Below the pieces are notes generated by a model. That model was not told the DNA's origin. It saw only the letters and a list, made by a program, of their open reading frames with translations, and did not search any database. A stretch of 64,000 nucleotides of DNA, from assembly GCA_951406725.2 (NCBI GenBank), contig OX597821.1, positions 65,596,001 through 65,660,000 on the forward strand, read 5' to 3'. The stretch is from Octopus vulgaris. Taxonomy: Eukaryota. The translations under genes were made by a program, and so were the position numbers. Of the stretch, positions 5,801 to 62,362 are shown piece by piece (the stretch's first letter is position 1; each line of letters begins with the position of its first letter).

Positions 5801-6251
5801 TTTATTTGCTGCCGATAAATTTGGCGCGAGTGCGACGATTTGAAAATTTTAGGTCAGATATTGCCGAGGTAGCAAGAGGAATGCCTCGTGAAAAATATCT
5901 GTTCCGACTTGGCTATTTCTTACTGATGAGTCTAAGGGCCTATGGTGGATTGGCTTGATTTAATTTAATCAGGTTAGTTTACCATTAAACGGTAGATGAA
6001 ACGGTGCATCGTCTAAGAAATTACAGGGTAAAAGTTTTTCAATTTTCTCCTGGTTTACGGAATTAATGTTATTTTGCGGTTAAAGCTTTTGGCTGTTATT
6101 TCTAGTGGGTGAATGGCCTATTATGGCCGTTCCTTGATTGTGAAGTTGAACGTAAAAATGGTTTATGACTATTTAATTTTTTTCCTACTAGGCCGCTGGT
6201 GGCAAAAGAATTCTACAAAATTTTTTTTGCCACCCTATATTGATTAATTAT
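5801..6251 (+). mobile_element. 484-bp HHR element (retrozyme-like), copy 1, about 0.93 unit, in (TA)n
   Basis: About 99% identical to the copies at 60121-61177 (3 substitutions and 1 poly-T indel seen); flanked by (TA)n. Confidence 0.85.
5915..6021 (+). ncRNA. Type I hammerhead ribozyme with extended stem II
   Basis: ATTTCTTA-CTGATGA-GTCTA..[19-bp hairpin]..TAGAT-GAA-ACGGTGCATCGT-C^TAAGAAAT; 8-bp stem I, GUC triplet. Confidence 0.9.
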
Positions 6252-6268
6252 ATATATATATATATATA

Positions 6269-7803
6269 CTAGCAGAATTGCGCGGCGTTGCTCGGGGCTG
6301 AATTGCTTGAAAGTACTGTTAATGATTGCACTGAATTATGATGATTATTCAGGCAAATATTGATATAAGTTTACGGTGGGAGATAAGGACTTAACGATCA
6401 AACGTGTGCCATTGCATTGTTTTGGGGGAACCAAATATCTGATGAGCATTATAGGGGCACCAACTTTAAGTTTGAGAAAGTGTGGTGGTAGTCCGGGGTG
6501 CTCAAAGGAATTGAGTACCTCTATTGGATAGTTGATGACGTCCTCTGGGTCAGGAGTTGTATCGATAGACTGATATACATAGATTTCCCCAGGAATGAGT
6601 TTTAGCATTTCATCATTAATATGGTGAACAGTTTTATTCCTCGGGGCCAGAATAGCCCTTTGGCCAATCCAATCCATATTCTGATAATTAGCTTGTAGAT
6701 CTGGGAACACTGCATCTCTGAGATCAGAAGGCGTCTTAACAAAGGTACAAATGGAATCGATGGCAATATTACCAGTTTCATCCCCTGGTATTTTGCCTTC
6801 GCAAAGTGCAAGGAGGGTGTGAGGAAATTTTTAAGAAAGGAATTTGTTTACATACATGTGTGAAATGGCAAATGTTTGTGCAGTTGTCCGAAATGGAACC
6901 AGGGTAAATGTGTGGAACTGATGTATAATAATGAAGGCCTTCTTGTTGTGAATATTAATTTGATTAATATGAACTAAAAACCAGTGGTGTAGCAAAAAGG
7001 ATGACCAGTCTGACTGGCTCATCCCTGTCACACACTCACACACACGCACACACACACACACACACACACGCACCCTTACACACACACACGCACACACACT
7101 CACACACACACACTCACACACACGCACACACACACACACATTAGCTTACAATTTTATTTATATATTTGCGTGTCTATGTGTGTAAAGAGGAAGTGGGAGT
7201 AATATGCAGAGTAAAGGCTTTGAAGTGAAAAGGTAGTTTTCTCGAATTTTTTCTGAAATGGGGGTGAAATTGAAAGAACTTTTGTATGTTATGACCGAAT
7301 GGAAGTACTTTGAAAAATCATAGGTAAACTCTAATTGAAGAAATTGTATGAGGAGTAAATCGTTATGTATTTATTTGTTTCTGTTTGCTGTGTTTTTTTT
7401 TAGTAGTGGTTTAAGGTACACTTGCAAAGAGAAAGAATGTGAAATTATGGTGATAGCATGAGTGATCCGTTTTATATAAATACTTTCACTTTAATCGTTG
7501 CACACTTGCAAAGAGAAAGGAGGAGAAATTAGGGTGATAGCGTGAGTGAAGCAGATCGCTCCGTTTTTGTGTGTGTGTGTGTGTGCTGTAGCCCACACTA
7601 AGAAAAGCACTTCACTTACACACCACAATGTGAGTTTTCTCGAAATTTTGCTTAATTGGGGTTGAAATTTTAAAAACTGGACCTGGCACGACCTGATGTA
7701 TTCTACCCTTAAAAATGCTAGGTAAATTGTAATTGAAGAAATCCTATATTGTAGATTTCTATAAGAGATAAAGGGAGGCAGATAAAATCTGCCTTTTGTA
7801 ATA

Positions 7804-59008: not shown

Positions 59009-59904
59009 TTAAAAAAACTTGATATCATTTGAGATGTAAATATCACAGAAACTACATAGCCAAAGCAAACGAAACTACATAAGATTTATTCTTCCAAATT
59101 TGAATGAGAAGTTTAAAGGGATGTGGATTCCATGAACGATTTCACAAAAAAAGGGCCTTGAAAATGCTTTCTGGAGATGGCGCAGAACACATTCACTTTC
59201 GATGAGTCTCTATCTTGCTCAACTGGGGCATGGGAGTTTTCTTCGCCCCAAATGCGATCATTAAGCTAACTGACTTTGCCATTCCAATGGAATGTGGCCT
59301 CATCACTGAAAAGAGGACGTTGTTTGAACTCGGCTTCTTCATGTGTCTCTTATATATCAACACAGAATTGTTTGCGTTTTCGCTTGTCAGCTGCCGTTAT
59401 GGCCTGAACGAGCTGCAGCTTGTAGGGTTTCATTAGCAAGCGTTTCCTCAAGACGCGCCAAACTGTCGTTGGAGGAATCTGGGTTTCCACACTTGTTCTT
59501 CTTATGGAATTCTTGGAGCTTCGCAAGAGTTTTTGGCGAACCCTCTCGACCGTCTCTTCCGATGTTAGTGGTCGTCCAAATCTTTTTACCCTACACAGAC
59601 AGTCTTCCTCTGAAATTTTTGTGCCATGTCCAAATCTGCATTGCCGTTGGTAACGTTTTAGAGAACTCTCTCACAAATGCACGTTGCACAATCTTGTTCG
59701 ACTGTGTTCTAGCATACGCCAACACACAAAATCCCTTTTTGCTTCCAGTGGATACCATTCCTATACCTGAAAAGATAAACATATCAAACATTACACATAA
59801 AAATTAGATCTGTTTCCACAGATGCTGTTAAAATTTGAAGTTATTGGAACAAGAACTAGCAAAGTCATTAGATTGCGAAAAGATATAATTTTTTTAAAAC
59901 CCTG
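59002..59904 (-). mobile_element. Internally deleted Tc1/mariner-superfamily transposon (maT/DD37D-like)
   Basis: Imperfect TIRs AGGGT..TTAAAAAAA.TT.ATATC in TA. The transposase remnant reads FCVLAYARTQSNKIVQRAF..IWTWHKNF, SGRP..TTVWRVLRKRLLMKPYKLQLVQ, FSDEATFH, RDSSKVNVFCAIS..GPFF. The later catalytic residues are deleted. Confidence 0.85.
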
Positions 59905-60049: not shown

Positions 60050-60118
<69 letters not shown>

Positions 60119-60120
60119 AT

Positions 60121-60653
60121 AATCAATATAGGGTGGCAAAAAAATTTTGTAGAATTCTTTTGCCACCAGCGGCCTAGTAGGAAAAAATTAAATAGTCATA
60201 AACCATTTTTACGTTCAACATCACAATCAAGGAACGGCCATAATAGGCCATTCACCCACTAGAAATAACAGCCAAAAGCTTTAACCGCAAAATAACATTA
60301 ATACCGTAAACCAGGAGAAAATTGAAAAACTTTTACCCTGTAATTTCTTAGACGATGCACCGTTTCATCTACCGTTTAATGGTAAACTAACCTGATTAAA
60401 TTAAATCAAGCCAATCCACCATAGGCCCTTAGACTCATCAGTAAGAAATAGCCAAATCGGAACAGATATTTTTCACGAGGCATTCCTCTTGCTACCTCGG
60501 CAATATCTGACCTAAAATTTTCAAATCGTCGCACTCGCGCCAAATTTATCGGCAGCAAATAAACCACCGATTCCGTTACGGAACTAACCAGAAAATTCAT
60601 AATTAATCAATATAGGGTGGCAAAAAAATTTTGTAGAATTCTTTTGCCACCAG
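60121..60653 (-). mobile_element. 484-bp HHR element copy 2 (1.1 units, terminally redundant)
   Basis: AATCAATATAGGGTGGC.. occurs at 60121 and again at 60605 (period 484). Confidence 0.9.
60343..60449 (-). ncRNA. Type I hammerhead ribozyme with extended stem II
   Basis: Reverse complement of 60947-61053. Confidence 0.9.
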
Positions 60654-61177
60654 TGGGTGAATGGCCTATTATGGCCGTTCCTTGATTGTGATGTTGAACG
60701 TAAAAATGGTTTATGACTATTTAATTTTTTCCTACTAGGCCGCTGGTGGCAAAAGAATTCTACAAAATTTTTTTGCCACCCTATATTGATTAATTATGAA
60801 TTTTCTGGTTAGTTCCGTAACGGAATCGGTGGTTTATTTGCTGCCGATAAATTTGGCGCGAGTGCGACGATTTGAAAATTTTAGGTCAGATATTGCCGAG
60901 GTAGCAAGAGGAATGCCTCGTGAAAAATATCTGTTCCGATTTGGCTATTTCTTACTGATGAGTCTAAGGGCCTATGGTGGATTGGCTTGATTTAATTTAA
61001 TCAGGTTAGTTTACCATTAAACGGTAGATGAAACGGTGCATCGTCTAAGAAATTACAGGGTAAAAGTTTTTCAATTTTCTCCTGGTTTACGGTATTAATG
61101 TTATTTTGCGGTTAAAGCTTTTGGCTGTTATTTCTAGTGGGTGAATGGCCTATTATGGCCGTTCCTTGATTGTGATG
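60652..61177 (+). mobile_element. 484-bp HHR element copy 3 (1.09 units, different permutation)
   Basis: AGTGGGTGAATGGCC.. occurs at 60652 and again at 61136 (period 484). Confidence 0.9.
60947..61053 (+). ncRNA. Type I hammerhead ribozyme with extended stem II
   Basis: Stem I 60947-54/61046-53; CTGATGA 60955-61; stem II base 60962-66/61025-29; GAAA 61030-33; predicted cleavage after GTC at 61045. Confidence 0.9.
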
Positions 61178-61252
61178 ATATATATATATATATATATAAA
61201 TGGCGGTGCCCCAGCATGGCCACAGCTCATGAGCTGAAACTAGAATCAATCA

Positions 61253-61288
<36 letters not shown>

Positions 61289-61570: not shown

Positions 61571-62311
61571 ATGTCCGCTCACACACACACACCTGCCACC
61601 ATGCCTTAGGTAGTGACCTAAAAAAGTAATTTGTAATTAACTGAGTAATCACTAATTCTAATTACTTGAGATTATAACCTTAAGGAGAAAACAACATCTC
61701 ATTAGCGTTAATGAAAATTATTTACAGAAAGGGTAAGGGAGGGAAATCTCGATATTTCAATCAAAGCAATTATTAGAAATATACAAAGATGTGTATGATT
61801 CTAATATTTTGATTTTGTTACCATGGGAACCATTCCGGATATGTTTTGATTGTATCGGTCTTCAACAGTTAAGCTTAGATCACCCAATAGCTACCAAGAT
61901 CTTATTTTTATTTTCTTTTTTATTTATATTTTTAAAATTCTATTTCATCCTTTATGTTTTATCTTTTTTTTACTTGATTCAGTCATTGGACTATGACCAT
62001 GCTGCAGCACCGCCTTGAACTGTTTTCTGGCGGAATAAGTCGAGTCCAGTATTTCTTTTTAAAACTTAGCTAGTGTTAGATGGTTGTAAACTGACCAACA
62101 CCGGTTGTCAAACATTGGCGGGAGACGTATCGGCCGCACGTATCCAATGTATGTGTTTCCCATGTTCGATGACTTTCAAGTGTTTTAATCCCTGGTGTAA
62201 TGAGGGAGTTGTCCCCAGCACGCTGTCTAGCGGCGAACAGGCTAACAAGGAACGCACATACATTGAGTACGTGCGTTCGATAATATTTACAACACTACCA
62301 CTGCTTTTAAC

Positions 62312-62362
62312 TCCTACTGATGAGGCTACGGATGTACCCGAAACTGACCCGTCAATATAGGG
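62312..62362 (+). ncRNA. Type I hammerhead ribozyme, slightly decayed
   Basis: TCCTA-CTGATGA-GGCTAC(GGAT)GTACCC-GAA-ACTGAC(CC)GTCAAT-A^TAGGG; one mismatch each in stems II and III. Confidence 0.75.

Follow-up and report, generated by a model that had tools for sequence, protein, structure and literature searches.

The two 484-bp repeat copies between 60116 and 61177 of the window (the whole stretch of 64,000 nucleotides of Octopus vulgaris DNA that was analysed) are the two arms of one insertion. Judged from its sequence, the family to which they belong appears to be a metazoan non-LTR retrozyme that behaves like a non-autonomous Penelope-like element (PLE): its end pattern, in which 3' ends fall at two fixed sites, the tail is one-sided and one copy is inverted and 5'-truncated, is a PLE footprint, common to an autonomous PLE-like family in the same genome. 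Variation within and between the arrays points to one monomer, most likely a circle, as the template.

One insertion with two inverted arms

Comparison of the window with itself yields two direct repeats, both spaced by 484 bp, the unit length claimed in an earlier note on this DNA, and the redundancies of 49 and 42 nt which that note reported are likewise exact: 60121-60169 equals 60605-60653 (53 nt if one mismatch is admitted) and 60652-60693 equals 61136-61177. Both lie within a single structure. The copies occupy opposite strands, form an inverted repeat whose 438-nt arms are 100% complementary, and share 2 nt (60652-60653) at the point where their 5' ends meet head to head; they are therefore two arms of one insertion (Table 1). 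This displaces the earlier picture of independently circularly permuted copies that start at free permutation points, as the 3' ends fall at the family's two fixed sites and only the 5' ends vary. The description as longer-than-unit copies stands for both of these arms but not for the third copy, a shorter insertion belonging to another haplotype; its identity to the unit, given earlier as about 99%, measures 98.9%. Flanking TA confirms the (TA)n location of all three copies, and in line with the claim that they encode no reverse transcriptase (RT) or transposase, the longest stop-to-stop frame in the unit is 66 aa in sense and 47 aa in antisense. The unit has a GC fraction of 0.37, its computed fold differs from chance by z = -5.08, and predicted hairpins end 12-17 nt before each fixed site (60660-60679 for A and 60745-60780 for B). 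As each arm orientation in the window holds one ribozyme, the window copies are unable to release unit-length RNA alone, and the insertion is a dead-end copy.

Other elements adjoin these copies. The (TA)n occupied by the insertion abuts the end of another dispersed repeat at 61198-61257, of which several copies with 83-87% identity lie within the window. A short frame at 59591-59758 (-) shows what we take to be a resemblance to the N-terminus of a mariner-type transposase. Beside the third copy, a fragment of a Pif1 helicase (PF21530) at 6345-6830 (-) is probably Helitron-derived.

Table 1. Coordinates of the repeat copies, their ends and their predicted ribozymes in the window
Feature	Position	Strand	Details
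Third copy, independent single-arm insertion	5801..6251	+	unit 36-484; 0.93 unit; B end; in (TA)n
Hammerhead of third copy	5915-6021		one motif
(TA)n target, left flank	60054..60115
B arm	60116..60653	-	unit 430-484 then 1-484; 1.11 units; 99.8% to unit
B-arm 3' end	60116-60120		fixed site B; faces (TA)n
Type I hammerhead motif, B arm	60343..60449	-	predicted cut between 60351 and 60350
Head-to-head junction of both arms' 5' ends	60652..60653		2-nt overlap
A arm	60652..61177	+	unit 339-484 then 1-380; 1.09 units; 100% to unit
'Tail', internal copy between sites A and B	60693..60797	+	about 100-105 nt
Type I hammerhead motif, A arm	60947..61053	+	predicted cut GUC^U between 61045 and 61046
A-arm stem I	60947-60954 with 61046-61053	+	8 bp
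A-arm core boxes	60955; 61030	+	CUGAUGA at 60955; GAAA at 61030
A-arm 3' end	61176-61177		fixed site A; faces (TA)n
(TA)n target, right flank	61178..61198		pure TA; duplication length unreadable

The family and its hammerhead

A 23-nt ribozyme motif has 956 exact matches in the genome searched (2.8 Gb in 227 contigs), as against 0 for the reversed control. On one contig (C1) 96 matches fall in 35 loci, which suggests about 350 family loci genome-wide. The loci are dispersed over many chromosome-scale contigs, with three sister families of like design; the sister families F2 (2351 first-look candidates) and F3 (1831) show about 73-74% identity. We analysed 139 loci, namely the 100 top BLAST matches, 33 loci taken in motif-list order, the third copy and 5 loci from variant searches, so that the counts below cover 140 insertions in 139 loci, and the choice of 100 of these by top BLAST match favours long arms. 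Not counted were the minus arms of L041 and L054, which are rich in errors, pieces below 100 nt, an 87% array in L117 with an apparent 5' end that is the edge of the retrieved sequence, and homopolymer and end positions; the variant analysis (134 loci) also dropped arms below 90% identity and gap-adjacent sites. The unit measures 484-493 nt across the family, the longest array runs unit after unit for up to 18 rounds, and 110 of the 140 insertions have at least two complete ribozyme motifs in one arm, the three arms in the window having one each.

The type I hammerhead claimed for all three copies was recovered, with one core in each. Its stem II has 5 bp and encloses 58 nt with a long hairpin, and its stem III of 4 bp is near-palindromic. 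Rfam returned 0 hammerhead matches at the gathering threshold and none among 23 matches at E<=5, probably due to the 58 nt inserted in stem II. The helices are nonetheless supported by covariation: seven pairs in stems I-III are altered on both sides, and pairing is kept in 92% of cells as against 29-46% in a slid control, in a hand-chosen set of 7 sequences from 3 families and a diverged 87% subfamily, where related sequences may beat a shuffle control without structure. The core is conserved, and the fold is retained in F2, F3 and the 87% subfamily. F2 mostly reads CCGAUGA, and in F3 the first position of stem II is unpaired; to go by these sequences, ribozyme activity may vary among the families. 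In the predicted circle stems I and II have a pairing probability of ~0.3 and stem III of ~0.02, the active fold thus being a minority.

Further motifs of this kind occur outside the family. At 62310-62360 (+) of the window a hammerhead-like core (CUGAUGA ... CGAAAC ... GUC) with a broken stem I is unrelated to the unit. Several unrelated hammerhead motifs (L071-L090 (F2), L172/L057, L060, L224) have C in place of U at core position 4 (CCGANGA), and other repeat families have type I hammerheads in which stem II encloses 40-60 nt (L055, L060, L115, L121, L132, L133, L163).

Fixed 3' ends and the Penelope-like footprint

Across the 140 insertions, 228 of 239 outer 3' ends lie at one of two sites about 100 nt apart, A (106 ends; unit 372-385, mostly 379) or B (122 ends; unit 472-12, mostly 479-484). 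The 5' ends scatter across the unit and show hot spots at 36, 432, 50 and the cut site 249. Multi-arm insertions (n=101) comprise 90 with A+B, none with A+A or B+B, 9 with one unclassifiable end and 2 odd ones. Hence, all 90 classifiable two-arm insertions are A+B; the rule held in 45/45 of the first set and 42/42 of the later one, and 21 of the A+B insertions come from the 33 loci in motif-list order. The 39 single-arm insertions end at B (26), at A (12) or elsewhere (1). TA runs lie within 20 nt of 136 of 150 insertion flanks. Target duplications of 13-15 nt, thus above 4 bp when present, were found in 7 two-arm loci with interrupted TA, chosen by eye from 18 automated matches among 75 insertions; 28 insertions with interrupted flanks among these 75 have no duplication.

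Two other routes to inverted arms were considered and set aside. L1-style twin priming on one linear RNA is at odds with the distance from A to the 5' end of the opposite arm, which is 50 nt in the window but scattered in other insertions. Fold-back copying of one cDNA is contradicted by the arms themselves, as either may be the longer and their 5' ends mostly differ.

Some joins depart from the usual structure. One arm is error-dense at L041:4184-4878, L115:5093-5380 and L054:4428-4584, reflecting assembly trouble or error-prone synthesis. At L060:4060-4591 the 5' end of a family arm is fused to a 360-nt tandem element that runs in the same orientation and has a hammerhead-like motif, a probable template switch, and at L097:5104-5320 a B arm and an arm of an unrelated repeat rich in hairpins are joined head to head. 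The last two joins suggest shared machinery and the occasional use of two RNAs.

This end pattern makes PLE-type dual priming highly probable. A purified PLE starts reverse transcription at two internal sites that define the tail, and the protein, a predicted dimer, cuts and extends both strands (PMC11167929). For PLEs, PMC8557442 describes (TA)n targets, copies that are inverted and 5'-truncated, and a tail confined to one end, and it calls the origin of their tandem and inverted structures unresolved. In the octopus genome itself a PLE-like family with a 717-aa frame has two 3' ends ~73 nt apart, with 25 A'+B' insertions against 1 A'+A' (duplicates removed by eye). The frame shows an RT motif and a GIY-YIG-like end by eye; a Pfam search of it gave no match, and the Atlas neighbours of the protein carry HTH_animal, GIY-YIG and RVT_1. 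This family (L224:3390-5540, L187-L236) is very abundant and young, with a ~2.6-kb unit, 34318 first-look candidates and a hammerhead-like motif whose core reads CCGAAGA. A further young PLE (L168:989-6205, L155-L171) has a ~460-aa upstream frame overlapping a 781-aa RT and GIY-YIG frame, ~510-nt terminal repeats, a minimal hammerhead with a UUGAUAA core and a ~38-nt tail. The tail of the family studied here exceeds the 30-40 bp usual in PLEs; as tails of ~100-105, ~73 and ~38 nt occur in one genome, tail length is not fixed.

The search for a partner scored 150 of 6136 candidates in a GIY-YIG scan and 109 of 34318 for a second family, and compared termini; no partner emerged from it. No arm in the 139 loci adjoins an RT/GIY-YIG ORF, the nearest PLE-like ORF being 471 bp away; the check proposed in the earlier note was thus run, and an autonomous PLE with such an ORF between terminal repeats was seen in 0/139 loci. 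The three families F1-F3 (F1 being the one in the window) have no meaningful DNA match to five sampled PLE-like families (best E 0.008); the 717-aa family shares a 10-nt word with the A end of F2, too short to call kinship.

Template, mechanism and meaning

The units of one insertion are close to each other, with a divergence of 0.32% within arms, 0.38% between arms of one locus and 2.2% between loci (74 loci). The 134 loci of the variant analysis yield 13 sample-private substitutions that all covering units share, and 10 of these are present in both arms; a further 210 variants are singletons, and 22 are minor variants found in several units. The fixation of private variants in all units and both arms indicates a single-monomer template, and we regard a monomer stage as likely. 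Among 80 loci 43 haplotypes occur, some of them set apart by 3-4 fixed changes, and no parent unit for the fixed variants was found in the assembly searched. To elaborate, of the 6 genomic occurrences of the L068 haplotype marker, 5 lie in the locus and 1 on another background; the L296 marker has 9, of which 7 fall within its locus and 2 on different backgrounds; and for L061, one of three 'private' markers tested, a sibling array (L300) exists. Sibling arrays show no excess of singleton sharing (8/2071, against 56/17491 for non-siblings). A signature of A-to-I editing was not seen, A>G making up 12 of the 210 singletons.

On a cut monomer the 5' end is reached 131 nt from site A and 236 nt from site B, yet 180 of 247 arm pieces are longer than one unit; hence the template ran unbroken through the cut site. 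As about 525 crossings of positions 244-251 show no indel, jumping from end to end of cut monomers is disfavoured as the main route. Four of 246 5' ends (0.5 expected), including both arms of L274, fall exactly at the predicted cut (unit 249) after 1.3-3.5 units; as a closed circle lacks such an end, some templates were probably linear or reopened, although these ends may instead reflect structure or microhomology, the hot spots at 36, 432 and 50 being equally strong. In the long or older arrays L246, L286, L096, L239 and L301 variants recur in some units, and this mosaicism points to DNA-level exchange, which could also homogenise arrays. The recurrence has a period of 3 units in L286:395-9368 (18 units) and of 2-4 units in L246:2068-7584 (11 units). 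Contigs of four presumed-RNA runs cover parts of the unit, some bridging the cut site, which fits circles, multimers or DNA. Rolling-circle reverse transcription on a ligated circle has been proposed as the retrozyme route (PMC7229834), and on the sequence evidence a covalent circle is somewhat favoured as the template here.

Hence, the data support the earlier reading of a young hammerhead retroelement that is non-autonomous and relies on a trans-acting enzyme, with a template either circular or longer than unit length, and we advance the following mechanism as reasonably probable: a non-LTR retrozyme for which a PLE RT-endonuclease acting in trans copies round a circular 484-493-nt monomer from both ends of a break. 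Arrays with at least two ribozymes per arm (110/140) would be transcribed, cut at GUC^U and ligated to monomer circles. The enzyme would make a staggered cut in (TA)n, as the 13-15-nt duplications suggest; one DNA end would prime at A and the other at B, ~100 nt downstream, in keeping with the end pattern, with the aid of 2-8 nt of AT-rich microhomology. Each cDNA would then round the unit 0.06 to about 11 times and stop, often at hairpins. The two cDNA ends would be joined head to head, giving the structure observed, or one would be joined to the target to leave a single arm, and long arrays would later be scrambled at the DNA level.

The strongest competitor, though unlikely, keeps the same PLE dual priming and takes as templates linear multimers transcribed from existing arrays, either uncut or cut in part; homogeneity would then come from young sources and DNA-level duplication or conversion, with circles, if made, a by-product. 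Arms of several units whose 5' ends coincide with the cut site, the mosaic long arrays and the sibling arrays L061 and L300 speak for it, as do the multimeric RNAs on axolotl blots (PMC7229834) and the finding that unprocessed RNA is the main substrate of a PLE in vitro (PMC11167929). However, new variants fixed in all units of both arms beside persisting singletons, siblings without excess singleton sharing, and two haplotypes without a matching source array in the assembly count against it, and linear copying alone only shortens arrays. Far less probable is that the unit is the terminal repeat (pLTR) of an unsampled autonomous PLE and the arrays its shortened copies: the ends, tail, inversion and target are those of PLEs, and the sample covers ~139 of roughly 350 loci, but no locus among the 139 has an arm adjoining an ORF, unit follows directly upon unit for as many as 18 rounds, and the five sampled PLE-like families have unrelated termini. 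We give next to no weight to a misassembly, or to an ordinary satellite that unequal crossing-over has expanded. Assembly is difficult where inverted repeats lie within microsatellites, and one arm each of L041 and L115 is error-rich, but the fixed ends, duplications, covarying ribozyme, dispersal over many contigs and three sister families all run counter to either.

Avsunviroids and viroid-like circles have a small structured non-coding unit with a hammerhead able to process multimers to monomers; unlike avsunviroids, the element has its ribozyme in one polarity only and is genome-encoded with retrotransposition footprints. A viroid-like circle that also replicates from RNA to RNA, the genome holding snapshots of an RNA population, is very improbable. 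The wealth of haplotypes (43 among 80 loci), of which some have 3-4 fixed changes and lack a genomic parent, fits it, and PMC7229834 raises RNA-RNA replication for mussel circles matching no database entry. A core-motif search of both strands found no antisense hammerhead core, and the predicted circle is branched, with 67% paired, rather than rod-like, so that the viroid-like label of the earlier note sits poorly with the data; further, source units may be missing from one haploid assembly, and the conserved A/B region fits selection for use by an RT. A bolder variant, a germ-line viroid-like RNA in which RNA replication is combined with a Penelope dimer that grips the circle at two sites and rolls both cDNAs into (TA)n, we likewise consider improbable; if true, the genome would hold hundreds of dated RNA snapshots, including haplotypes without a DNA parent.

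Returning to the retrozyme copied by a PLE enzyme, its kin are recognisable. Like the metazoan non-LTR retrozymes of coral, mussel and axolotl (PMC7229834), it has a short, non-coding, low-GC (37% here) tandem unit with one type I hammerhead, dispersed as dimers to multimers with no LTR arrangement, target duplications >4 bp, and autonomous PLEs in the same genome. Its unit is longer than the 170-400 nt given in that paper and within the 51-972 nt of bioRxiv 10.64898/2026.07.22.740005. It differs from the retrozymes in these accounts in that stem II encloses 58 nt, so that Rfam misses the motif, and in its two fixed 3' ends and obligate A+B inverted arms; expression and circles were shown for the retrozymes of PMC7229834, whereas this family is known from genomic sequence. 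PLE mobilisation with circle-templated tandem cDNA was proposed for retrozymes in PMC7229834, and the link to PLEs was argued from co-occurrence and repeat kinship in bioRxiv 10.64898/2026.07.22.740005; against the 21 Xenopus matches of the latter, we found no homology to a PLE terminal repeat in the five families sampled. The EN+ PLEs (Poseidon PAc, PMC11167929; Naiad/Chlamys, PMC8557442) are described as likewise having two internal RT start sites, a one-end tail, an inverted 5'-truncated copy, partial tandems, AT-rich or (TA)n targets and a hammerhead in the repeat. Unlike them, the element has no ORF, the repeat is the whole element, the tail is about 100-105 nt as against 30-40, and the hammerhead, minimal in those elements, here has a full stem I (8 bp) and a stem III of 4 bp. 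Chlamys elements such as MRC1 (PMC8557442) are likewise non-autonomous PLEs with multicopy head-to-tail insertions. As to novelty, which the earlier note had left undecided, we found no paper on the family or on inverted two-arm retrozyme insertions in the open literature (Repbase and Dfam aside), and the main text of PMC7229834 does not use the word 'inverted'; the kind of element itself is described there and in bioRxiv 10.64898/2026.07.22.740005.

Taken as a whole, the family demonstrates that Rfam misses hammerheads in which stem II has a long insert. Its strict A+B rule is a countable footprint that fits two-site, two-strand priming, and arrays resembling copies of single monomers provide a countable footprint for the hypothesis of circle-templated tandem cDNA. 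Finally, with two mapped start sites and a conserved fold, predicted alike for F1-F3 and including the hairpin before each site, the family defines a short substrate on which circular and linear templates may be compared.
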